A DNA stretch of 64,000 nt from the NCBI GenBank assembly GCA_030390025.1, contig CM059432.1, positions 42,162,001 through 42,226,000 on the forward strand. Reading direction: 5' to 3'. This stretch comes from Squalus acanthias (taxonomy: Eukaryota). Shown here one piece after another: positions 150 to 59,870 of the stretch (position 1 is the first letter of the stretch; the number at the start of each line of letters is the position of its first letter). The position numbers were made by a program, and so were the translations under genes. Under the pieces are notes generated by a model, which did no database searches, had not been told where the DNA came from, and worked only from the letters and a program-made list of their open reading frames with translations.

Positions 150-411
150 GCTTTCACAGGCGAGGTTCAGGAAACCCGTGAATCCCGTGCACAGCCAGTA
201 AAAGCTGCAACATTAGGTTGAAAAGCCTGTTAATAATCTGTTAATGAGCTCTTAAATACTTTAAGTAGGTCGCCTGCCTCTCCCGAGCAGGTCTCTGACG
301 CGCGGAAGTCAATGGGGTGAAGTCGGCTTCCCGCTTCGCTGTCATTTTCAGCGCTTTTAACTGCCCACCCACTCGCAAACCTGCACTCATTTCAAAGGAA
401 AAATTCTGGCC
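150..411. mobile_element. Right end of a Harbinger-type element/MITE (left part unresolved)
   Basis: Ends GGAAAAATTCTGGCC|TAA, like the other Harbinger termini in the window; GC-rich subterminal region. Confidence 0.45.
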
Positions 412-456
412 TAAATTTCATCCTGAGAAAGTGCCTGGGGAAGGGAGAGACACCAT

Positions 457-1208
457 GGCCTAAAAATTCAGTTGCTTTGCGCAAAGCAACTAGCAACTAG
501 TGCCTGGGCGCGGCACCACCAATGCCTCCCACAAAATTCAGCAGGAGATTAGTGGCGGCGGTAACCATTAGCACCCCGCAGCGCTGCACCGCCGGCGATG
601 ACATCATCGCCGTGCGCAGCGCCCCGCTCGCGCAACGGCCACGATCTTCGGTAGCGCCCCCTGACTTACCGCCGGATGCTATGTCCAACAGGGTCAGGGG
701 GGCTTACCTGCGGCCGGGGCGGCGCAAATTAAACGTGAAGTTGCCTGGTGGCCATTTTTGTTGCTGGCCACCTGCCAGCACCTGCCCCCATTGTCGTCCC
801 CGGCCTCCTGAGCAGCCCCCCTCCCCCCACCCCGCGGAGTGCCGGCTGCGCTCGGTGAGCCTGGCACTTCTCTTGAGCGCCGGGCTCTTTTGCCGGCACT
901 CTGATCCCTGGTGGCCCAGCTGGGCCCCGGGTCGCGCTGCGCAAGGCCCCTCCCCTTTAAGAAGGGGAGGAAGGCTTGCAGTAGTGTGGCGTGATTTGCC
1001 GCAGCGCATGGTGCTGCGGCACGTAGCGCCACGATATTCACTCGCAGTGCCCCAAGAGGGCGGTGGGGCGCTTCCAGTAGCTCCCCGCCTCCCTCTTGTG
1101 GCGCTACCGATGAATTTCGGCCGCGGGGGCGCTAATTTTTTCAGGGCGCTAAAAGTAGCAGCCCAGTGAAGTTAGCGCCCTAAAGGGGGCATGACCCAAT
1201 TTTCCCCC
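457..1208. mobile_element. Harbinger-type MITE (GC-rich)
   Basis: CAT|GGCCTAAAAATT ... AATTTTCCCCC|CAT; internal similarity to 36004-36762 (shared CCCCTTTAAG-AAGGG and TTAGCGCC motifs). Confidence 0.7.
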
Positions 1209-1362
1209 CATTACTTGAATTATTTCTAACTTTTTCTGATTAATTAAATCTCAAATTTAAATATAACATCATGTTACAGTCTCACCTTGTGGCTGGGATG
1301 TAAATATTAGGTGACACTGTAAGAGGTAATAGTTTTTGAATATTGGAACTTAGAATGTCATA

Positions 1363-1465
1363 GGGGTCGATTTTAATTGTTCCTACTGGGCAGGAAATGG
1401 GCAGGAGCGGGTCGGTTGCCTTTTTTACACCCCGATTAATTTTCCTTTCAATTAAAATCGACTCC
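1363..1465. mobile_element. 103-bp mini-MITE, Harbinger type
   Basis: 17-bp TIR GGGGTCGATTTTAATTG / CAATTAAAATCGACTCC (1 mismatch), ATA on both flanks. Confidence 0.8.
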
Positions 1466-1945
1466 ATAGAATATTACAGCACAGAAACAGGCTATTTGGT
1501 CCATCAAGCTTGTGCTTGTATTTTACTCCACATAAACCACCTAGTCTAATCCCACTCTCCTCTCCATACCCTTTAATAATCCTCTTTTCAAGCAACTATC
1601 TAATTATCTTTTAAAAGAATTTATGGACTTTGCTTCAACAACATTTTATGGCAGAGAATTATTTCAAATTCTAATTTACCCCTACCATTTGATTCCTGCT
1701 CTCTAACCATCTCTCTATCCATGTGGCTACATTCGTTTTAATTCTTTGTACTATAAGTCTTTTATATAGTACCGTATCAAATGCTTTTTGAAAATTCATC
1801 TCCTTTATCTATCCTCTCTGCTATTTCTTCAAGGAATTGTATAGGGTTGTTAAGCATGACATGCATTTTAGAATTTTGTTCTGACTGCCATGATTAACTC
1901 ATGTCTCTCCAAGTTCCTAGTAATTCCATTCTGTATTATAGACTA
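1466..1945 (-). mobile_element. Old CR1 LINE fragments (3' tail plus RT remnant)
   Basis: ATAGAATATTACAGCACAGAAACAGGC resembles the reverse complement of the CR1 3' UTRs elsewhere in the window; minus-strand remnant of the DFQKAFD motif near 1770-1795. Confidence 0.55.
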
Positions 1946-1949
1946 TATT

Positions 1950-3128
1950 GTCTCTGGATTTTCCTGGTAAAATTTGCTTGCTTTTGAGGAGGTCTGGTGA
2001 GGAAAAGGGGCAGAGGCCTTCCACCAAACCCCTACCCCAAAAATGGCCGCTTCAAATTCCATCTGCTGACCCTGCTATTACTCGGATATACCTGCCCCGA
2101 ACCCGTACCAGCACATGTAGATGAAGGCTGCGGTGCATGGTTTAGTACTCCGCACTATTTTTCTGTCTTTGCACTGATTTCCCATTCTCAGAAAACAAAA
2201 CCTGTGTAAAAGGGGTGGTGTTGGGACCAGTACAGTGTCACAGAGGTGTGAAAAGATGGTGAAGGCCAGAGGTCATTGCAAACAGAGTTCTTGCAGAAGT
2301 TTGAAAGAAAATATTTGCATTTATAAATCATCTTTCATGACCTCAGAATGCTCCAAAGCACTTCACAGCCAATGAAATACATTTAAAGTGTAGTCACTGC
2401 TGTAATGTAGGGAAATGCAGCAGCCAATTTGCACACAAGATCCCACAAACAGCAGTGATACAAATGACTAGATAATTTGTTTTCTTAGTGATGTTGGTTG
2501 AGGGATAAATGATAATAGATCTCCCGTGACATCGGTCATGACAAATCACAGGATATTCTGTTTTATAATGATAGCCTCATTCTGCTTTCTTCCATCCTCT
2601 CCTCTATATCCTCACCCTCCTCATAACACAGGAAGAAGGGTATTCCGACTGGGAAATCCATTACTTTTCCCAAAATGTTTTAATTTTATTTTAGTGTTCA
2701 CTCCTAAGTTCTGTATTGTTAATTACCCAAGATGTAAGATGGCTCCAAAAATCACAGCCCCTCTCAGTCTGTAAATAGTCCTGAAGGTTTAAAGCATTGC
2801 CTGAAGCTATGGCCTACATTCTGCTCTCCTGGACACCATACTGGCCTCATGCTGCCACCTTTGTAGTGTCTGTTTTCTGGGGATGGTATGGGGCAGAAAC
2901 CAAGAAAATAGTGCGGTCAAGTAAACCACGCCCACCAGTCTCTATCTACATGTGGTAGAGTGGGTTCAGGGTGGGTGACCTCATTGACTGGCAGGTTCAC
3001 TGGAAGAAAGTTTTTACTGGCTCTTTTTGGTGCATGGTTTCAGCAGGATACCTCCTCACCTCATTTTCCTTAGTTTACCACCACAATGTCGCTGGAAAAT
3101 GGGTGATTTTACTGTAGAAAATCCAGGC
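1950..3128. mobile_element. Two inverted copies (or long arms) of a Harbinger-type MITE, about 1950-2215 and 2812-3128
   Basis: 2090-2162 (CCCGAACCC..CACATGTAGATG..GGTTTA..CCGCACTATTTT) is a degenerate reverse complement of 2906-2980; terminus AAAATCCAGGCC at 3128. Confidence 0.55.
2303..2510 (-). mobile_element. SacSINE1/DeuSINE 3' fragment
   Basis: Aligns by eye to 27307-27505 (CAAAGCACTTCACAGCCAATGAA, GCAGCCAATTTGCACAC, GAGGGATAAAT). Confidence 0.8.
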
Positions 3129-3539
3129 CGTTGGGTTTGGATCAATATCCCCTGCATGTAAGCTACTTTTAGCTTCATCCCTCTACAAATTTTCCAGCTA
3201 TCATGATGGTGAAGAGTAAGCAGTTTATTATATATGGATATTGATAAAGTATAATGATAAAAGTATTTAATTTCGTTTTAAGTTTTTTAAAAACTTCTTA
3301 TGCACCGATTACTAGTTGAGTGACATTCTCAGATTTCAGGCAGCTTAGTGGAGTGGGACAGTGTACAGCCTCATACAGGAAGTGTATGATGAATCCGTTT
3401 GATCCCTAGTGATACAGATTTGGGTCTACGGCAGATACCTTCTTGGATTCAGTGGCATTAGTCGCTCCCTTCAGTGGTCCGAGCATCTTACTTTTATGAG
3501 CGTTGACTCACACTCATATATCTGCTCAAGTGGAGAATG

Positions 3540-5190: not shown

Positions 5191-7231
5191 ATGGCACGAG
5201 GTAGTTGATAGAGTGATCACTCTTCATGTTTGTGGATCATGGTAGCAGATGATTAAGGTGCTAATATAAAGCTTCCCACAGTTTGACACCTCAAATTAAG
5301 TTTATATCTGTAGTATGTGTGCCACAAGCATTCTGCGCCAAACATGGTGCAGCATCAGTGAAGGAAAATGGGAAACGCTGGCACAACTTTACAACTTTCA
5401 CTCATGCAATTCCATGTCCATACTCAGGACAACAACCCCATGCCATCAAAAAGTAGGTGTGCCCTGAACCTTCTCAGGTTGTTGCTTCATTTCATATGAA
5501 AAGTAATGAAAATGTTTCCCCCAGCAATGAAGGCGTCTGTCACTTGTTTTATACCATGTAGAGAGGAGACTGATTGATGTCACCAGTGATATAAAAAATT
5601 AAAGCTATGGTAGCCTTCACAGCCACAGGCAGGACCATCCCTGTGAAAGATCTTGGTGGTGGGGGTAGTGGCTGGGCTCAAGGAGGCGTAACTCCACGGC
5701 ATCCTCCCTTGTAAAAGCATATCTGGTGAAGGCAGGTCCCGTCAGATACTCCCAGAAAGCTATAGCTAGCTCTGAAGACCTGACTCCTATGAAAAAGCCC
5801 AAGTGGACATCCACTTCCCTGAGAGCCACCTGCCTTTCTTCTTTCTGCTTTCTGCATGAACTCCACTTCCTGTTAGAAATCCAGCATTGCCAATGGAATG
5901 CACAAGAGCATTCCCATGTTGAACACTGATTGCTGCTAATGAAGCAGCTGCTGCCAGCAACAGTACTGTCGAGAAAGGTATCTGAAAATGAGACCTTTAA
6001 TGCAAAAATGCAAAAACAAAACCAGCAGCTCAAAAGATAAAGAAAAGTGCAATAACTTTAAATGGAATATTAAACTGTCAATCACACCTTTAAGAATAAA
6101 ACTACTACTGGTCAGAGCATAAAGTCCAAATAGCTCCTGTTTTATATGAGCAAACAGGTGCTATTGGGATATTGGCATGGGACCAAGTTACACATAGGAT
6201 TGCCTAAAATTAAGAGGGCTATCGAGGCTCTCACATGCTCTGTGCGAGGCCGCCGAAAATTTGAAGCCGGCTGAATTTGATGCTCCATGAATTAGGCATT
6301 TGGGTCGACTTGCCCAATTCAGTGAGGCACATTCCTCTTATCGTGCACCATTGCTGAATTGGCCCTCCCTACTCGTCAGCTTGTAGGCCCGGAATTTTTG
6401 ATTGTAATGACGGCAAAACTATCAGCGTTCACCGTCATTACTCTGTGAAACTGACAGCAACTTCTGGTGTCCCGCACATGCGCAGTTAAACGCGAAAATC
6501 CAGAGGTTGCTGTCAGTAATTTCCTGCTGCTCTACAGGGTATGCTATTGAAGTCCTCGCAGATGGAAATCTTAGAAATCACTTGAATTGACGTGAACTTC
6601 CACTTTTTACACTCTAATCTCGCTGTAAAAACCCCCAAAAAGTTAAACCTTGTTGAATGAGGTGTAACTGGGTTTTTAACAGTGTACTAAGCTTAATTAC
6701 AGCTGAACAATCTCTATTGCCCTGAAAAACTAATTTTATATTTGTGGAATATCAAACTTCTCCATTATGATAAAAATTCCATACATTTTTTAAAGATTAA
6801 AAATTATTTTTTCCAAGTTTGTTTATGATATTTCAGCTTGTATCTTAATCCCATGTGTATGCCCCAATCTTTATTTCGCTCCCTGTAAAATTATTAGAAA
6901 GTGAAGGATAACCAGTGCTTTTTACTTCCTGGTTTGTTGTCTGGGAGAATTCTTCAATATGATTGGCTGCTTAGCCTGCTTGCTGACATCACTGTTGTTG
7001 GACACCGGAGATCTCCTATCTTTTTTTTAATTTGTTCCTGGGATATGGGCGTCACTGGCAAGGCCAGCATTTATTGCCCATCCCTAATTGCCCTTGAGAA
7101 GGTGGTGGTCTTGAACCGCAGCAGTCCCTGTGGTGAAGGTACTCCCACAGTGCTGTTAGGGAAGGAGTTCAAGGATTTTGACCCAGCGATGATGAAGGAA
7201 AGGCGATATATTTCCAAGTCAGGATGGTATG

Positions 7232-8919
7232 TGTAAGGGTTTTGCCTTGTGTGGCTCTGTGCTCAGCCTGGGTGCTAGTGCGAGGTTAGGCCTTGTTGCC
7301 TGTTCTGGTCTCCAGCCAGTCTGGGAGCACTAGACACCTATGAGTGGTTCGACCCACTCGCCCTTACGGTTCTGACACTGGACTTAGATGCGAGAGCAAT
7401 AATGGAGAGAAAACTCAGGTAGACCTGGTTGAATGGTACGAAATGGAAAATCTTTATTGCATATTATTCAAGATTACGAAATACATGTCATAAGCACAGA
7501 TTAATGACAGTACAATCTTACACGCAGCTATGTAACTAATTTTAGGGAAACGAGGAACGAACGACACATCGTAAATGGGGGCACACATTACAGTTATCCT
7601 TAAAACTTAAACCCTCCCCTATCAATACCTGCTCTAAACTAGATTTGTAGGATCGAGACTCATGCTCACCACTCGTGATAACTCGGAGAATTCCGAAAAC
7701 TCTGCTCGGATGTTTTTACCGCAGCACCTGATCACCCACGTGTTGATCAGGGGTCTCTGTACCCCACTTGTTTACTCGTTTCTGCTCCGGCTAGCAGGCT
7801 GGATCGTCTGCTGTCATGAAGATCTGTGTTGTCCTCGGAGTTCCGACACGACTCGAAAAATAGTCTTCCTGTGCCCTCGCCCTGATGCGATAAAACTCGA
7901 AGAATAGTCTTCCGATGCCAGTTCTGTAGAACTCAAAAGATAGTCTTCCTGGGCAAGGAAAGTGTCTATTCGACCTACAGGCGCGGTCGGGGCTTACTGA
8001 CCGTGGCGATACGTATGGTCGTCTTCTTCTCTTCTCATCTCATCTCATCTCATCTCATCTCATCTCATCTCGTCTCGGGCCTTTGGTCCCAACACCGTTT
8101 ACCGACTTCTCGGGATGGTGTGCCCGTTTCAAGGCTTCACAGCCCAGTTCCACACAGATCTTCGCGGCAAGCCACGAGGCTGATCCTGGCGGATCAGAAA
8201 GTTCAACAGTCTTTCAGCAAGTCAAACAGCAAGAGCTGCAAGAGGCAGAGGCACGATGCAAGCGGCAAGAGGCAGGAGAATAAGAGAAAGATGGACGGTT
8301 GTAGCTTACAGTTATAGTGCGAAAACTCTTCTTTTCCCGCCCAACCTTAATGTCTTTTCTTTTGTTAGGGTTTTGGCGCTCAAATTTCTTGTATAGGGTG
8401 ATCTCCGTTTTAATGGGTTTCGGGGATACTCGTAACTGTCTGAGTACCTGTTAATACTTCTCCCATTGTGTAACCGGTCAGTATTCTCCCTGGAGGGGTT
8501 TTGGGGCTTCCAAATGTTTTCTGTAACTACCCGCAAACGGCTCTCTCATCGTAGAGTCGTGGGGATTTTGCATATTAATGTCTTTGGATGGGTTCTTGAT
8601 CGCTTGGTACAATAGCGCTTATTCGCACCTGGGAGACCGATTTCAGTATTTATGTGTATACTGCAAACCCATAATGTCTCGTGTATTATCTCAAATGTGC
8701 TGAGTCTTGATCGATCTCGCACAAATGTTTATTGGAACGCCATCTTGTCTGCTTATCGAAAAGTCTAGAATGTTCTGCCACGAGGCGTGGCGGCCATTTT
8801 ACAGGCTGCTTGTGTCCACTTTGAAAACCTGACAGCATTCTGCTGAAATAAAGCTGTTTGAACGAAACTATGTGTTTTCTCCTTATTTATAAAATCGCGA
8901 TTATATTGCGAATTCTACA
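7232..8919 (-). mobile_element. Solo LTR (1688 bp)
   Basis: TGTAAG...TTCTACA termini, 4-bp TSD TATG (7228-7231 / 8920-8923); removal restores the LINE sequence seen at 25921-25947. Strand inferred from a minus-strand AATAAA near 7455. Confidence 0.85.
8030..8072 (+). repeat. (TCTCA)n microsatellite inside LTR
   Basis: Direct pentamer repeats. Confidence 0.95.
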
Positions 8920-9892
8920 TATGTGACTTGGAGGGGAACTTGGAGGTGATGGTGTTCCCATGCGCCTGCTGCTCTTGTCCTTCTAGGTGGTAGAGGTCAT
9001 GGGTTTGGGAGGTGCTGTCGAAGAAGCCTTGGCGAGTTGCTGCAGAGTATCTTGTAGATGGTACACACTGCACCATGGTGCGCCAGTGGTGGAGGGAGTA
9101 AATGCTTAAGGTGGTGGATGGGGTGCCAATCAAGTGGGTTGCTTTGTCCTGGATGGTGTCAAGCTTTTTGAGTGTTGTTAGACCTGCACTCATCCAGGCA
9201 AGTGGAGAGTATTCCATCAAACTCCTGACTTGTGCCTTGTAGATGGGGAGTCAGGAGGTGAGACACTCGCTGCAGAATACCTAGCCTCTGACCTGTTCTT
9301 GTAGCCACAGAGGTGGCGCCAGAATGAAATTAGAGTTGGGAAAGGTGAAATCCACACCACAGAGATTGCTAGATCTTTGTGGGCGGCTTTCTTCGAGGTC
9401 AGCAGCGAGCGCCATCCTTTCGCCGTTGACCGCACAATCCAGGCCAATATCTATGATAGTTACTTCAAGCCTTATGTTACTTTTACAGTAAATGAAATAC
9501 TATTCAAAATGCTGCATACTTAAAAATGTAAAACTTTTCTAGTGACAATGCATATAAAACTAAATTCTATTCGAACACATTTAAATTTATAGAAATATTC
9601 AATACATTATTTAGACATTCAATAGGTAATTTTCTGACTTCAGGCATCCAACAGGGAGCCTCAACCGCTGCGAGCACATATCAGAAATTCAGGTGTGCAC
9701 CAGTAAACAACATTGAAAATGACCATTTCATGGTCTGCTGTTGATAGAACATGATCATGAAAATTTCTGTCTCATTTGTGGAAAATGCAAAGGTTTCCAT
9801 GCCAGCAATATTTCAATACTGAACGTGGATTTATTCTAAATCCTGAAATCCAGGGCAGAGCAACTACATAATTTTAAAATTTGTAGCAATCA

Positions 9893-10823
9893 TGCAGACT
9901 GACGATACCCATCTTCACCTCACCACCACCTCTTTCAACCCCTCCACTCTCTCTAAATTGTCAGACTGCTTGTTTGACATCCAGTACTGGATGAGCAGAC
10001 ATTTCCTCCAACTAAATATTGGGAAGACCGAAGTCATTGTCTTCAGTCCCCGCCACAAACTCTATTCCCTAGCCCCCAACTCCATCCCTCTCCCTGGCAA
10101 CTGTCTGTGGCTGAACCAGACTGTTCGCAACCTTGGTGTCGTATTTGACCCTGAGATGAGCTTCTGATCACATATCCATGCAATCACTAAGACTGCCTAT
10201 TTCTACCTCCGTAACATCATCCGACTCCACCCCTGTCTCAGCTCAGCTGCTGCTGGAACCCTCATCCATGCCTTTGTTACCTCTAGACTTGACTATTCCA
10301 CGCACACCTGGCCGGCCTCCCATCTTCCACCCTCCATAAACTTGAGCTCATCCAAAACTCTGCTGCCCGTAACTTGCACCAAGTCCCATTCACCCATTAG
10401 CCCTGTGCTCGCTGACCTATATTGGCTCCCGGTTAAGCAACGCCTCAATTTGTTTTCAAATCCCTCCATGATCTCGCCCTTCCGTATCTCTGTAACCTCC
10501 TCCAGCCCTACAACCCGCCGAGATATCTGCACACCAACAATTCTGGGCTCTTGCACATTCACGATTTTAATCGCTCCACCATTGGCGGCTGTGTCTTCAG
10601 CTCCTAAGCTCTGAAGTTCCCTCCCTAAACCTCTCCATCTCTCTACCTCTTTTTCCTCCTTTAAGACGCTCCTTAAAAACTACCTCTTTGACCAAGCTTT
10701 TGGTCATCTGCCCTAATATCTCTTTATATGGCTCAGTGTCAAATTTTATTTGATAATGCTTCTGTGAAGCACCTTGGGATGTTTTACTATGATAAAGGCA
10801 CTATATAAATGCAAGATGTTGTT
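9893..10823 (+). mobile_element. L2 LINE 3' portion
   Basis: DDTHL..DCLFDIQYWMSRHFLQLNIGKTE..VRNLGVVFD, LIHAFVTSRLDY, HISPVLADLYWLPV-like motifs; tail ATAAATGCAAGATGTTGTT. Confidence 0.9.
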
Positions 10824-21945: not shown

Positions 21946-22537
21946 AACAACAACAACAACTTGTATTTATATAGCGCCTTTAACGTAATAAAACGTCCCA
22001 AGGTGCTTCACAGGAGCATTATCAAACAAAATTTGACACCGAGCCACATAAGGAGATATTAGGGCAGATGACCAAATTCTTGGTCAAAGAGTGTCTTAAA
22101 GGAGGAAAGAGAGGTAGAGAGGCGGAGGGAATTCCAGAGTTTAGGACCTTGGTAGCTGAAGGCACAGCCACCAATGGTTGAGCGATTATCAGGGATTCTG
22201 AAGAGGCCAGAATTAGAGGAGCGTAGATATCTCGGAAGGTTGTGGGGCTCTAGGAGATTACAGAGATAGGAAGGGGTGAGGCCTTGGAGGGATTTGAAAA
22301 CAAGGATGAGAATTTTGAAATCGAGACGTTTCTTAAACGGGAACCAATGTAGGTCAGCGAGCACAGGGTGATGGTGAACGGGACTTGGTGCGAGTTAGGA
22401 CACGGGCAGCAGAGTTTTGGATGACCTCGAGTTTATGGAGGGTAAAACGTGGGAGGCCGGCCAGGAGTGCATTGGAATAGTCAAGTCTAGAGGTAACAAA
22501 GGGATAGATGAGGGTTTCAGCAGCAGGTTAGCTGAAG
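21946..22537 (-). mobile_element. L2 3' portion
   Basis: LADLHWFPFKKRLDFKILILVFKSLQGLTPSYL..FSYQGPKLWNS; (AAC)n tail at 21947. Confidence 0.9.
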
Positions 22538-22554: not shown

Positions 22555-22890
22555 TTGAGAAAAGAGCCACAGCCTGTTTAGTCTTTCCTGATAAGTATAT
22601 CCTCTCAGTTCTGGTATCATCCTTATGAATCTTTTTTGCACTTTCTCCAGTGCCTCTATATCCTTTTTATAATATGGAGACCAGAACTGTGTGATCTAAC
22701 CAAGGTTCAATACAAATTTAACATAATGCCTCTGCTTTTAAATTCTATCCCACTAGAAATGAACCCCAGTGCCTAGTATGCTTTTTCTATGGCCTTATTA
22801 ACCTGGGTCGCTACTTTTAGTGATTTGAGTATCTGTACTTCTAGATCTCTTTGCTCCTCTACTACATTTAGACTCTTATTATCCAAGTTG
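22555..22890 (-). mobile_element. CR1 ORF2 fragment
   Basis: Minus strand: LYXTLVRSHTVLVS..IEALEKVQKRFIRMIP-like CR1 RT C-terminus. Confidence 0.7.
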
Positions 22891-22893
22891 TAC

Positions 22894-25800
22894 GGTAGCA
22901 TAGTGGTTATGTTACTGGACTAGTAATCCAGAGGTCCTGGACAAGAGTTCAAATCCCACTTCATGGCAGCTGGGGGAATTTAAATTCAGTTAACTAAATA
23001 AATCTGGAATTAAAAAGTTAGTGTTAGTGTTAGTGTTAGTAATAGTGATCATGAAACTACCAAATTGTTGTAATAAACCCAACTGGTTCACTTATGTCCA
23101 TTACCTGGTCTGTGACTTCAGACCCACAGCAATGTGAAATGGCCTAGCAAGCCACTCAGTTGTATCAAACCACTACTAAAAATAAGACAGATCAACCTAG
23201 GCACTGGAATCAAATATCACACCCTGTCAACCCTGCAAAGTCCTACTTGACCTTGTCCTCACTGGGAATTGGGAGAGCTGACCCACAGACTAGTCAAGCA
23301 ACAGCCTGACATAGGGCTGGATTTTCTCAGCCCCATGGAGGTGGGACTGCCAGTAAAGTGGGGGCGGATGGCAAACCCGCCTTTTTGCCAGGAGGCGGAA
23401 AGATGTGCTGCTTCGGGTCCTGTCTCCTGGAAGCGGGACAGGGATTAAATCCTTTTAACTGCTTGTTAACAGGTAGTTAACAGGCAGGAAAAAGGATTAG
23501 TGGCATTTTGCCTTCTCAGGTGAAGGCTTCCCGACCTGGGAGAATCCCATCGGGTTGGAGGAGACGTGAAGGAGGTCTGCGGGGGCACCTGGAAGTAAGA
23601 TGTAGAGGTGAGTGATGGGTGCAAGTGTGGAGTGGTAAGTATGTAAGGTGAGTGATAAGTGTTTAAAAATGTTCACTTACCTTGTTTTCTTCCTACAGCC
23701 TTCATCCACCCTGGATCGGGAGACCCGACATCTTCCTTGTCAATTTCACAGACTGACTGTTGGGTCTTCCGAACCAACAGCCATCTGAAATCGACAAAGT
23801 TGAAAGGTTTGATGAGTCCTGAACACAAAGGCTCATCAAACTACAGAGAATGTCAGTGTTTGACAGCTTCACAGAGCTGTCAAACGCTGACATTTCTTCT
23901 TTCAAGAAGTCTTGACAGATAACACGTCAGACGTTGATGTGCTCTGTCAGTGACTTCCTCTCTAATTGGCCTGCTGAGCCCGCAGGGCGGGCTTAACAAG
24001 GTCAATCAGGGGAAAATCCCTCTGGTTGGTCAGACGATGATGGAGGCGGGACATTGACATGACAAGCAGATTCAGAACAGAACTAGCAGTGAAAACTGGG
24101 CATCCATGAGGCGCTGTGGACCATCAGCAGCAGCAGAATTGTATTCCATCGCAATCTGTAACGTCATGGCCCAGCATATCCCTCACTCTACCATTACTAT
24201 CAAGCCAGGGAACCAACCCTGCTTCAATGAGGAGTGCAGAAGAGCATGCCAGGAGCAGCACCAGGCATACCTAAAAATGAGTGCCAACCTGGTGAAGCTA
24301 CAACATGCATGCTAAACAGCAGAAGCCGCATGCTATAGACAGAGCTAAGCGATCCCATAACCAACGGATTAGTCCTGCCACATCCATTCATGAATGGTGG
24401 TGGACAATTAACTAACGGGAGGAGGAGGCTCCATGAACATTTCCATCCTCAATGATGGCGGAGCCCGGCACGTGAGTGCAAAAGACAAGGCTGAGGCGTT
24501 TGCAAACAGAGGTGCCGAGTGGATGACCCAGCTTGCCCTCCTCCTGAGGTCCACACCATCACAGTCTTCAGCCAATTCGATTCATTCCACGTGATATCAA
24601 GAAACGACTGAGCGCTCTGGATACTGCATAGGCTATGGGCCCCGACAACATCCCAGCTGCAGAACTAGCTGCGCCTCTAGCCAAGCTGTTCCAGTAGAGC
24701 TACAACCCTGGCATCTACCCGACAGAGTGTAAAATTGTCCAGGTATGTCCTATCCGCAAAACGCAGGACAAATCCAATCTGACCAATTACCGCCCCATCA
24801 GTCTACTGTCAATCATCAGCAAAGTGATAGAAGGTGTCATCGACAGTGCTATCAAGTGGCTGTTAGCCACCAATAACTTACTCACCGATACTTAGTTTGG
24901 GTTCTGCCAGGACCACACAGCTCCAGACCTCATTACAGCCTTGGTTAAAACATGAACAAAAGAGCTGAATTCCAGAGGTGAGGTGAGAGTGACTGCCCTT
25001 GACATCAAGGCAGCATTTGACCAAGTGTGGCATCAAGCAGCCCTGGTAAAATTGAAGTCAATGAGAATCATGAGGAAAACTCTCCACTGGCTGGAGTCAT
25101 ACCTAGCACAAAGAAGATGGTTGTGGTTGTTGGAGGCCAATCACCGCAGCCCCAGGACATCGCTGCAGGAGTTCCTCAGGGCAGTGTCCTAGGCCCAACC
25201 ATCTTTAGCTGCTTCATCAATGACCTTCCCTCCATCATAAGGTCATAAATGGGGATGATTGTTATAGTGTTCAGTTCGATTCGCAACTCCTCCGATAATG
25301 AAGCAGTCCATGCCCGCATACAGACCTGGACAACATTCAGTCTTGGGCTGATAAGTGGCAAGTAACTTTCACGCCACAAAAATGCCAAGCAATGACCATC
25401 TCCAACAAGAGAGAGTCTAACCACCTCCCCTTGACATTCAATGGCATTACCATCACCAAATCCCCCACCATCAGCATCTTGGGAGTCACCATTGACAGGA
25501 AACTTAACTGGACCAGCCACATAAATACTGTGGTTACAAGAGCAGGTCAGGGGCTGGGTATTCTGTGGTGAGTGACTCACCTCCTGACTCCCCAAATCCT
25601 TTCCACCTTTTACAAGGCACAAGTCAGGAGTATGATGGAGTGCTCTCGACTTGCCTGGATGAGTGCAGCTCCAAATACACTCAAGAATCTCAATACCATC
25701 CAGGACAAAGCAGCTCACTTTATTGACATCCCATCCACCACATTAAACATTCACTCCCTCCACCACCGGCGCACTGTGTCTGCAGTGTGTACCTTCTACA

Positions 25801-26143
25801 AGATGCACTACAGCAACTTGCCAAGGCTTCTTCGACAGCACCTCCCAAACCCATGACCTCTACCACCTAGAAGGACAAGGGCAGCAGGCACATGGGAACA
25901 CCACCATCTCCAAGTTCCCATCCAAGTCACACACTATCCTGACTTGGAAATATATTGCCGTTCTTTCATCGTCAGTGGATCAAAATCCTGGACTCGTACC
26001 CTAACAGCACTGTGGGAGTAACTTCACCATACGCACTGTAGCGGATCAAGAAGGCAGCTCACCACCACCTTCTCAAGGGCAACTAGGGATGGGCAATAAA
26101 TGCTGGCATTGCCAGTGACGTCCACATCCCATGAATGAATGAA
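22894..26143 (+). mobile_element. CR1-group LINE family B, near full length, with tRNA-like 5' head; EN start 23269-23313, RT region 24066-25990, disrupted
   Basis: A box TAGCATAGTGG, B box GTTCAAATC; LGELTHRLVKQQPDI (APE N-terminus); NYRPISLLSIISKV, ALDIKAAFDQVWH, GVPQGSVLGPTIFSCFINDLP; 3' end GGGCAATAAATGCTGG..(ATGA)n. Confidence 0.8.
23314..24060. mobile_element. Harbinger-type MITE inserted in the LINE endonuclease region (right end lost)
   Basis: ATA|GGGCTGGATTTTCTC terminus; subterminal GGGCTTAACAAG..AATCAG also seen at 53442. Confidence 0.7.
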
Positions 26144-26229
26144 AACAATATTGGCTGCACAATGAAAGAGCAGAAAGAAAAGTATCGGGATACGAGAGAT
26201 TTTCTTGGGCTGTAAGGTCTAATGAATTT

Positions 26230-36968: not shown

Positions 36969-37109
36969 CATAGGAAATACAGCACAGAAACAGACCATTC
37001 GGCCCAATCAGTCCATGCCGGAAAACATTCAAGCCAGGTATGAGTTAAACATACAATCTTTTGATCTGTAGTCAGATGTGTTATCCATTGCGCCACTGGC
37101 CCAGGCTTC
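36969..37109 (-). mobile_element. tRNA-Arg/CR1-tail chimeric retroposon (SINE-like)
   Basis: Minus strand: GAAGCCT + 73-nt tRNA + AATGTTTT + CR1-type tail (GGGCCGAATGGTCTGTTTCTGTGCTGTATTTCCTATG); removal restores ATATATTA|GCATGGATTGAG of the host CR1. Confidence 0.8.
37030..37102 (-). pseudogene. tRNA-Arg(ACG) pseudogene (anticodon now ACA)
   Basis: GGGCCAGTGGCGCAATGGATAACACATCTGACTACAGATCAAAAGATTGTATGTTTAACTCATACCTGGCTTG is colinear with vertebrate tRNA-Arg(ACG); several changes at CpG sites; B box broken. Confidence 0.9.
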
Positions 37110-38226
37110 GCATGGATTGAGGATTGGTTAACGGACAGAAAACAGAGAGTAGGAATAAATGGGTCATTTTCGGGCTGGCAGACTGTAACTAGTGGGGTAC
37201 CACAAGGATCGGTACTTGGACCTCAGCTATTTACAATCGAGTGTAATGTATCCAAGTTTGTAGACGATACAAAGATAGGTGGGAAAGTAAGTTGTGAGGA
37301 GGATGCAAAGAAGTTCCAAAGGGATAGTGACAGGTTAAGTGAGTGGGCAAGAACATAGCAGATGGAATATAATGTGGAGAAATGTGAAGTTATCAACTTT
37401 GGTCGGAAAAATAGAAAAACTAAATATTTTTAAATGGTGAGATATTGAGAAATATTGGTATTCAGAGGGAGCTGGGTGTCCTTGTATGTAAATCACTGAA
37501 AGGTGTAAAGACCTTTTTTCTGACCTCTTTAATTATTTTAATGGTTATCATAAATCTGTGTCCTTTGATACTGTCTCACTGACCACAGTAAACAATCTGT
37601 TACTATTTACCTTATCATAATCCCTCAACATCTTGAATATTACGTTTGTGCACAAAAGAATACATGAAAATAGAGTCCTTTACCACATAATTAAACAGAG
37701 AAAATAAACATTTCCATTGAAAAAACAATATTTCGTTTTTAAAATGTGATTCCTGAATATGTTCTCCATAGACCACAATAATTTAATAACACAGGAACTT
37801 AGACCAAATAGATTGGAAAATTGATTAGAATTTTGCTGATGTTGATGCCATATGGCTCTTTTGAAATCTCTACTGGACAGGCTTCATTGATTCAATGGAA
37901 ACTTAGCGCTCTAATTTGCTTTTGATATCAACAGCTCTGTCAGTCTGTCTTTATTTTGAAGTAAGCACAAGAGAAATTCTTTCTAAGATCCTTTTTCTCC
38001 AATATATGGAAGGAGAATTCTTTGGCTAGCGTATATACCTTTGGCTCTTTGGCTCTTTGCTGCACTCTATGGTCATGATTAACTGTGGCAAAGACTACAA
38101 GCAGGTGACCTACTACCAGGTTTCTTCCAATGCAACATTTGAGCCAGCTGCAAGACTTCATGAAAGTTTGGTTTTCATTTGCAACCCACCCACTCCTCAG
38201 TGCAGCATGGACTGACCTGTGTGCAG

Positions 38227-55119: not shown

Positions 55120-55668
55120 TTTTTCCCAAAGCCTCTCCACCACATACAAAGCACAGTTCAAGAGTGTGATGGAATCCTTCCCATTTGCAATGGGTGTAAT
55201 TGCAGTAACACTCAAGACGCTCATCATCATCCAGAATAAAGCAGTCCACTTGATCAGCACTTCATCCACTAGCCTAAATATTCACTCCCTCCACCACCGG
55301 CATAGCATGGCTGCAGTGTGTACTATCTATAAGATTCACTGCCGCAAGTTGCCGAGGTTTCTTCGGCAGCACCTCCCAACCTGTGATCTCCACCACCTAG
55401 AAGGACAGGGCAGCAGGTGCATGGGAGCACCATCACCTCCAAGTTCCCTTCCAAATCATACACCACCCTGACTTAGACTTATATTGTCATCCCTTTGTCT
55501 TTACTGGGTCAAAGTCTTGGAACTCTCTACCTAACAGCATTGTGGGAGCACCTTCACCACATGCACTACCGATTCAAGTGGAAGGCCTTGTAACGGAAAC
55601 TAGGAATGAGCAATAAATGCAGCATTTCCAGTGACATTCACACCCAAGAATGAAGAAAAATAAAAAAA
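55120..55668 (+). mobile_element. LINE family B 3' end nested in L2
   Basis: IQNKAVHLI..LNIHSLHHRHSMAAVCTIYKIHC; 3' GAGCAATAAATGC..AATGAAGAAAA. Confidence 0.85.
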
Positions 55669-58186: not shown

Positions 58187-59870
58187 ATACAGAAATACGA
58201 GAAAACCAAGGGTGTGGCGAGAATGAGGAACTTAAAGAAATTATTATTAGTAAAAAAACAGTACTAGCAAAATTAACGGGACTAAAAGTCGATAAATCCC
58301 AAGGACCGGATGACCTACATCCGAGGGTTTTGAAAGAGGTGGCCATTGGGATAGTGGATGCATTGGTTGTCATCTTCCAAAATTCTATAGATTCTGGAAT
58401 GGTTCCTGCAGATTGGAGGATAGCAAATGTAACCCCGCTATTTAAGAAAGGAGGGAGAGAGAAAACGGGGAACTACAGACCTGTTAGCCTCACATCAGTA
58501 GTTGGGAAAATGCTGGAATCTATTATAAAGGATGCAATAACTGGGCACTTAGAAACTAATAGTAAGATTGGGCAGAGTCAACATGGATTTATGAAAGGGA
58601 AATCCTGTTTGACAAACCTATTGGAGTTCTTTGAGGATGTAACTAGTGGAGTAGACAAAGGGGAACTGGTAGATGTGGTGTATCTGGATTTTCAGAAGGC
58701 CTTCGATAAAGTCCCACACAAGAGGTTGGTGAAAAAAATTAGGGCGCATGGAATTGTGAGTAATATACTAGCATGGATTGAGAATTGGTTAACAGACAGA
58801 AAACAAAGAGTAGGGATAAACGGGTCTTTTTCAGAATGGCAGGCTGTGATTAGTGGGGTACCATAAGGATCAGTTCTTGGGCCCCAGCTATTCACAATCT
58901 ATATCAATGATTTGGATGAGGGGACTAAATGTAACATTTCCAAATTTGCTGATGACACAAAGCTAGGTGGCAGTGTCAGTTGCGAAGAGGATGTGAAGAG
59001 GCTTCAAGGGGATCTTGACAGGCTCAGTGAGTGGGCGAGAACATGGCAGATAGAATATAATGTGGATAAATGTGAAGTTATCCACTTTGGTAGAAAAAAC
59101 AGAAAGGCAGAGTATTTGCTAAATGGTGAAAGATTGGGGAATGCAGATGCTCAAAGGGACTTGGGTGTCCTTGTACATGAGTCACTGAAAGTGAATGTGC
59201 AGGTGCAGCAAGCCATTAGGAAGGCAAATGGTATGCTGGCCTTTATTACAAGAGGATTTGAGTGCAGGAGTAAAGAAGTCTTACTCCAATTATATAGGGC
59301 CTTGGTGAGACCACACCTGGAGTACTGTGTACAATTTTGGTCTCCTTACCTAAGGAAGGATATACTTGCCATACGAAGGTTCACGAGATTGATTCCTGGG
59401 ATGGTGGAACTGTCGTATGAGAAGAGATTGAGTAAACTAGGCCTGTATTCTCTTGAATTCAGAAGAATGAGAGGGGATCTCATTGAAGCATACAAAATTA
59501 TTACAGGGCTTGATAGGGTGAATGCTGGGAGGATGTTTCCCTTGGCTGGGGAGTCTAGAACCAGGGGCCACAGCCTCAGGATAAAGGGTAGGCCATTCAG
59601 GACTGAGACGAGAAGAAATTTCTTCACACAGAGGGTGGTGAATCTTTGGAATTGTCTACCCCAGAGGGCTGTGGAGGCTCAGTTATTGGGTATACTCAAA
59701 ACAGAAGTCGATAGATTTCTGACTAGTAAAGGCATCAAGGGATATGGCGATAGGGCCAGTGAATGAAGTTGAGGCAGAAGATCAGCCATGATCTCATTGA
59801 ATGGCGGAGCAGGCTCGAAGGGCCGAATGGCCTATGCCTGCTCCTATTTCTTATGTTTTTATGTTCTTAC
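58187..59870 (+). mobile_element. CR1 LINE, 1.7-kb 3' portion with nearly intact RT
   Basis: KSQGPDDLHPRVLKE..NYRPVSLTSVVGK..YLDFQKAFDKVPH..GVP*GSVLGP..FADDTKL..; stop at 58864; CTTATG tail. Confidence 0.95.

Follow-up and report, generated by a model that had tools for sequence, protein, structure and literature searches.

Within the 64,000-bp stretch of the Squalus acanthias genome analysed here (hereafter the window; forward-strand positions 42,162,001 to 42,226,000 of contig CM059432.1, assembly GCA_030390025.1), a LINE with a reverse transcriptase (RT) is preceded by a tRNA-like sequence carrying the A and B boxes of a Pol III promoter. This arrangement raises the question of whether the tRNA-like head belongs to the LINE and, if so, which polymerase makes the coding RNA. 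The standard view assigns LINEs to Pol II and SINEs to Pol III, partly on the grounds that transcripts of Pol III are short, lack a cap and terminate at runs of T. The element in the window is a dead copy of an elasmobranch Zenon LINE. Judging from the sequences of this copy and its relatives, we consider it probable that the parent element, a 3.3-kb LINE with a single ORF and a tRNA-derived, A- and B-box-bearing 5′ end of its own, would have been transcribed from end to end by Pol III.

The tRNA-derived head, which is the 5′ end of the family, occupies 22888–22955 (A box 22896–22906, hairpin 22915–22931, B box 22947–22955), and all parts of the element lie on the forward strand. The preliminary description had correctly placed the A box, the AGT-centred hairpin and the B box, each of which occurs once in the window, but had begun the element at 22894; the start of the family corresponds to a position six bases earlier, about 22888. 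The remaining 5′ UTR (22956–23182) corresponds to consensus positions of about 84–345 and is common to the head-plus-tail SINEs considered below. It is followed by the decayed start of the single ORF (23183–23314), comprising an Arg-rich N-terminal extension and the first endonuclease motif, LGELTHRLVKQQPDI, at 23269–23313, 313 bp past the B box and with RT and tail downstream. An unrelated interspersed repeat of 753 bp, not derived from the element and without match to the consensus, lies at 23315–24067; it is related to copies at L024 (72%), L109 (88%) and L076, as well as L021 and L152, and contains two hairpins of 20–23 bp and five runs of four or more T. The rest of the ORF (linker, RT and C-terminal domain) extends over 24068–26086 with its stop at 26084–26086, and the 3′ UTR (26087–26145), also common to the SINEs, holds a predicted stem-loop, AATAAA and a decayed A-rich tail. 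The window copy thus aligned to the family consensus at 6–526 and 1150–3311 only, with the 753-bp repeat in place of the ∼620 nt between (consensus 527–1149, most of the APE endonuclease). An APE start some 330 bp past the head, with RT and tail beyond it, was therefore rightly recognized at the outset, but the uninterrupted succession of head, APE and RT was not upheld. The RT frame of the copy is broken by stops and frameshifts, its identity to the consensus over 24068–26145 is 88%, and its divergence outside CpG sites is 7%, versus ∼4% for family copies.

Other repeats are present in the window. Three additional pieces of this family's 3′ region were found at 8922–9310, 7022–7233 and 55125–55660, and L2-type fragments at 22059–22394 and 9928–10311 (L2 yielded 8,030 candidates in the genome). 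A canonical CR1 lies at 58228–59499; its family has been active recently, since 39 other scored copies were 98–99% identical over 401 bp. A minus-strand tRNA-Cys called by ARAGORN at 37029–37103 adjoins a CR1 RT fragment (37098–37409) and is probably a false call derived from a repeat.

Copies of the family were collected from the 3.7-Gb genome in two ways. A search with the head of the window copy returned 4,088 candidates, of which 40 were scored and 30 fetched. A search with APE only, which avoids selecting for the head, returned 3,580 candidates, of which 40 were scored and all 39 non-query matches used; the matches are the top-scoring members of a single family, so that a diverged sister family bearing a different 5′ end would lie outside the reach of this sample. 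Among the 29 non-self loci selected by head, five continued into APE and RT, 22 were head-plus-tail elements of ∼380–500 bp and two were heads interrupted by other sequence. Among the APE-selected copies, 35 of 39 entered the head and 14 reached the tRNA start (positions 1–14), while the other four stopped at consensus 384–412; the end points were staggered, as in LINE 5′ truncation. No ORF1 was shared upstream of these 39 copies (five had an upstream open frame of at least 150 codons), nor was a shared alternative 5′ end found among them. The single shared flank adjacent to a junction, in the pair L032/L088, does not represent a common 5′ end, because the head of L032 resumes upstream of it.

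The tRNA head is thus almost certainly the LINE's own 5′ end. The initial proposal of an autonomous element made of a tRNA-derived 5′ UTR and a single ORF, without ORF1, was supported by these copies, and the check for full-length copies with a different 5′ UTR or an ORF1 revealed none that was shared among the 39. An independent SINE inserted upstream of a 5′-truncated LINE, whose true form would have another 5′ UTR or an ORF1, is scarcely credible and was effectively refuted by the APE-selected sample. It would agree with the excess of SINE over LINE copies among head matches and with the variants enriched in the SINE sample that the window head carries at consensus 90, 172 and 193 (and, judged by eye, at position 5); that sample is biased towards the window copy, as the latter was the query of the head search. 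Against it, the window head is collinear into the start of the ORF (consensus 6–526), past the point at which the SINEs end (347 or less), nearly all APE-selected copies possess the head, the L032/L088 flank is no common 5′ end, and published full-length consensuses begin with the same sequence.

Forty copies gave a majority consensus 3,311 nt in length, with one open frame (331–3249; 973 codons) encoding APE and RT. Pfam recognized Exo_endo_phos on an intact natural copy, L089, and RVT_1 on another, L085 (PF03372/PF14529 and PF00078). The copies fall into subfamilies of 23 and 17, whose consensuses are set apart by 27 synonymous codon changes and 16 non-synonymous ones, and headed elements therefore kept making working protein. 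In a coding-frame comparison the N-terminal extension showed only five changes. The 3′ ends were A-rich in most of the 47 that could be anchored, in keeping with the poly-A tail of the Zenon clade, and AATAAA stands ∼40 nt ahead of the tail. A flanking repeat of 7–9 nt was found in 6 of 31 copies, versus 3% of mismatched pairs, and the claim that target-site duplications are absent was discarded as an overstatement. Among protein matches to the element, the best-named came from a shark. One gene model of a shark (P0003), with the annotation aldo-keto reductase, contains ∼220 residues of the Zenon ORF in frame, which is either exonisation or an annotation artefact.

The element has the organization of the Zenon clade, with APE and then RT in one ORF, no ORF1 and a UTR of ∼330 nt ahead of the ORF. 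In a quick RT tree (47 rows, midpoint root, without a named Repbase Zenon), it fell in a clade (SH-aLRT 99) with proteins of Colias (butterfly), Hydra and Scylla (crab), apart from both the CR1 and the L2 of the same genome; the RT phylogeny called for at the outset thus placed it outside the two. Its RT is 32% identical to that of the genome's CR1, and the esterase ORF1 of canonical vertebrate CR1, or clustering with esterase-encoding CR1, was not found. No RT relative was found in viral contigs. Non-LTR retrotransposon ORFs within prokaryotic genome records (L251–L263) most likely represent host contamination of the assemblies. Zenon has been reported in five elasmobranchs, always lacking ORF1 and with a poly-A tail, and all Zenon elements surveyed lack ORF1 (PMC13343379); the absence of ORF1, which had been thought unusual, is therefore a published feature. 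To judge by eye, the first ∼340 nt of the published SquAca_Zenon-1 (3,314 nt versus 3,311 nt here) equal our consensus but for about five positions, and over their first 400 nt seven elasmobranch consensuses from five species (SquAca_Zenon-1, -2 and -3 and the Zenon-1 of CarCar, ScyCan, RhiTyp and HypSab) all begin with the head, which was not seen by eye in the first 400 nt of the hagfish and coelacanth consensuses (PMC13343379). The main text of that report contains no occurrence of tRNA, Pol III or promoter and does not describe the head, terminator avoidance, the missing AUG or partner SINEs for elasmobranch Zenon, and the preprint likewise makes no mention of tRNA, Pol III or a promoter (PMC13343379). 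Nor is the head described as part of a LINE in the accessible parts of PMC4824008, PMC5499810 and PMC7245038. The loss of ORF1 is thus known, and the head is present in public data, yet undescribed within the literature covered.

The A box begins ∼9 nt from the family 5′ end, as in tRNA genes, and the family head has two tandem hairpins resembling anticodon arms, the second of which is mostly lost from the window copy. An Rfam tRNA match to 22889–22944 was weak (21.8 bits, E 0.064, under the gathering score), ARAGORN called no tRNA at the head, and Rfam found neither a ribozyme nor another family on an intact 5′ UTR. The head was initially termed Thr-like; the AGT-centred hairpin is there, but tRNA-Thr(AGT) is not favoured, matching 49 of 74 positions versus 50 of 73 for tRNA-Gln, the two types compared. 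The genome harbors long tandem arrays of tRNA-Gln (unit ∼1.19 kb) and tRNA-Thr(AGT) (unit ∼2.06 kb), located in G000 at C21:3342186-3501089 and on C26, C27, C460 and C603. With a tRNA-derived head bearing both boxes (at Rfam scores under the gathering cut-off) the element resembles SINE2; the 380–500 bp head-plus-tail copies are also short, non-coding and non-autonomous like SINE2 elements, and the 3.3-kb element is not.

A recent horizontal transfer into sharks, of the head alone or of the entire element, with a cnidarian or another invertebrate as donor, is very unlikely. Elasmobranch Zenons do cluster with elements of crustaceans, and not with the Zenons of hagfish or coelacanth (PMC13343379), and a short head-like motif occurs in the head of a bivalve CORE-SINE; against a recent arrival, the nearest non-shark RT is only 51–52% identical and Hydra proteins 41–43%, head homology was absent from 80 related metagenome loci, and the family is present across sharks and rays. 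The suggestion of a cnidarian source accordingly found no support in the RT identities or those loci, and an ancient transfer could still have taken place. A 24-nt motif of the head was absent from contigs of prokaryotic genomes and from viral contigs, collections that say little about an animal repeat.

SINEs uniting this head and tail, anticipated in the preliminary description, do exist and made up 22 of the 29 head-selected loci. At least four recurrent junction classes were recognized, joining consensus positions of about 334–347 to 3171–3175 (nine copies), 301 to 3207–3209 (three), 329 to 3217 (two) and 323–334 to 3237–3241 (three), and similar joints were seen in contigs of all four sequence runs examined, from four organisms. 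SINE and LINE heads are equally diverged (4.8% and 4.6%). A single SINE origin was not rejected (p-AU 0.18) in a head-plus-tail tree that was mostly without resolution (1 of 39 branches starred), and the shorter junction classes nest inside the longest; the SINEs are therefore either deletions of the LINE or descendants of an older Zenon-tailed SINE that gave the LINE its head. Zenon tails are also used by bivalve SINEs (PMC11481361). In a comparison with the known SINE superfamilies (Deu, CORE, V, Meta and UCON3), which are defined by a conserved central domain, short body motifs had no match in the searchable hagfish and MetaSINE supplements.

The minimal terminators of Pol III, TTTT (T4) and TVTTT, are excluded from Pol III transcripts (PMC8466645), and neither occurs on the sense (non-template) strand of the consensus, as expected of a Pol III unit. 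That strand (3,311 nt) has no T4 and seven T3 runs, versus 17 A4 runs. Consensuses of CR1 (3,068 nt) and L2 (2,887 nt), built from 30 copies each in the same genome, have seven T4 each and 37 and 35 T3 runs, respectively. TTTT, TVTTT, TTVTT and TTTVT combined occurred 2 times on the sense strand and 69 times on the antisense strand, as against 46 times in CR1 and 51 in L2. Terminator-like pentamers amounted to 0.6 per kb, versus 5.2 expected from T content alone, 15–18 in the genome's CR1 and L2, and at least 10.6 in each of the 64 related ORFs; one of these, with an equal T fraction, has 16 pentamers per kb. These controls came from 93 related loci in metagenome and genome contigs, 64 of which had an open frame of at least 500 codons (about 8 of the 64 in the Zenon clade), and T4 was present in all of the first 60. 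A sense strand without TTTT and nearly devoid of terminator-like pentamers is the new observation of this study.

Codon choice followed the same pattern. At third positions synonymous for T and C, the fraction of T fell from 0.41 to 0.29, 0.12 and 0 as the resulting run lengthened from one to four (Fisher p = 0.0006), with an odds ratio of 0.24 that lay below all 60 control ORFs (lowest 0.38). Pooled controls were flat, CR1 fell less (0.68 to 0.44), and A, C and G showed no comparable steady fall with run length. Absence of T4 is kept in both subfamily consensuses; taken by itself it fell short of significance under the strictest nulls (P = 0.105 by codon permutation, 0.148 by dinucleotide shuffle) and had P = 0.007 under a null of four-fold sites, with only two sites at which a synonymous change could create T4. 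At the tail junction, runs of at least four T were found in 4 of 40 copies versus none of 44 at a matched site inside the element, a marginal difference (p = 0.047; 29 of 69 ends were unclassifiable) that may faintly hint at a terminal terminator. TT and T3, neither of which stops Pol III, are likewise reduced, and a broader avoidance of U would therefore fit as well. Several crab-type Zenon proteins, the nearest clade, are likewise poor in Phe (2.1–2.4% versus 1.8% here), and T-poverty may therefore predate the head. Low Phe content was dropped as proof of selection; 10 of 17 conserved Phe columns are kept, and their loss does not exceed that of Leu or Val columns. A scan for A and B boxes upstream of the 64 control ORFs found no pair, the 5′ end being missing from many of these contigs.

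No AUG stands ahead of the endonuclease in the consensus frame, whose first Met is residue 287, beyond that domain. The 5′ UTR contains eight upstream ATGs and terminates in a Met-Ala-stop that is in frame with APE in 18 of 24 cases and is followed by a second stop. A hidden subfamily starting at AUG was considered and set aside; a few copies had a sense codon at the first stop, but both subfamily consensuses keep the two in-frame stops. An out-of-frame ATG begins a frame of 48 codons that spans the start of APE (consensus 358–504; decayed in the window, at about 23190–23293) in 10 of 29 copies and, by eye in the first 400 nt, in the published consensuses of five species (PMC13343379); it is a possible signal for frameshifting or re-initiation.

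We favour Pol III because the 5′ end is at tRNA +1, the A and B boxes are present, and T4 and near-T4 motifs are lost in a strand-specific manner. TFIIIC would bind the two boxes, Pol III would start at tRNA +1 and, meeting no terminator in the body, would continue for about 3.3 kb until it reached a T-run at or beyond the 3′ end. The uncapped RNA would be translated without scanning to a first AUG, through a non-AUG start, re-initiation or a frameshift, and the protein would copy its own RNA by target-primed reverse transcription. The head-plus-tail SINEs (about 380–500 bp) would likely share promoter and enzyme with the LINE, and a single capture, from a SINE or a tRNA-derived RNA, probably supplied the head before sharks and rays separated. 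That Pol III has run this coding LINE since before that split, from a captured SINE promoter and by way of a terminator-purged, uncapped, AUG-less mRNA of 3.3 kb, with SINEs arising by internal deletion, appears to us evenly balanced between true and false. Two further considerations count against Pol III: translation of an uncapped RNA with eight upstream ATGs has to be accounted for, and the strategy is fragile, as one mutation to T creating a T4 would cripple a master copy.

It is possible, though we doubt it, that the captured SINE head serves as a 5′ UTR and that Pol II, using promoters in the head or its flanks, makes the full-length coding RNA. Avoidance of U-runs might then guard against RT drop-off, premature polyadenylation or cryptic splicing, or be an older trait of the Zenon subclade, explanations to which we attach a similarly low probability. 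LINEs are regarded as products of Pol II (PMC5786205) and capped RNA is easily translated, but the eight upstream ATGs and the lack of an in-frame AUG argue against ordinary cap scanning. The AATAAA ahead of the tail suits Pol II; this signal can also direct polyadenylation of tRNA-derived SINE RNAs (PMC8466645). Depletion of TT and T3 along with T4, and the occurrence of Phe-poor sister proteins, would likewise suit Pol II, but no such depletion is seen in the CR1 or L2 of the same genome or in the 64 related ORFs, the depleted motifs are known Pol III terminators, and the 5′ end is located at tRNA +1.

If transcription by Pol III is correct, the RNA would be a natural Pol III messenger, and the first for a self-copying LINE. 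Its cap- and AUG-independent translation would be directly testable with a reporter built on the consensus, and a one-step route from LINE to SINE would erase the boundary between the two. The density of terminator pentamers offers a sequence signature with which repeat libraries can be screened for other cases.

In the literature covered, which lies outside Repbase Reports and the subscription journals, we found no description of an autonomous LINE that is tRNA-headed or driven by Pol III, and the closest known systems each share part of the arrangement. T+ tRNA-derived SINEs (B2, Dip and Ves) have a tRNA head that carries A and B boxes, an AATAAA close to the 3′ end and an A tail, sometimes preceded by a T-run; unlike the Zenon element, with its 973-codon ORF under constraint, they are short, non-coding and non-autonomous (PMC8466645). 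SacSINE1 and CmiSINE are tRNA-headed SINEs of cartilaginous fishes, but are described as having a Deu or CORE body and an L2-derived tail rather than a Zenon tail (PMC5499810). RTE-1_DAn and the elements related to it are LINEs with a tRNA-like sequence matching many SINE2 elements, but belong to the RTE clade and are known here from a description that gives neither the position nor the promoter role of that sequence (PMC5786205). The head-plus-tail copies have counterparts in bipartite non-autonomous LINEs and in LINE-bodied SINEs (RTE, Ingi, Vingi and R2), which are likewise short and combine a LINE's 5′ end with its 3′ end, but those described in the accessible part of PMC5786205 come from four clades only, with none lacking an ORF in the CR1 group. 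Moreover, their tRNA head was added later, whereas the autonomous Zenon partner already carries it (PMC5786205).
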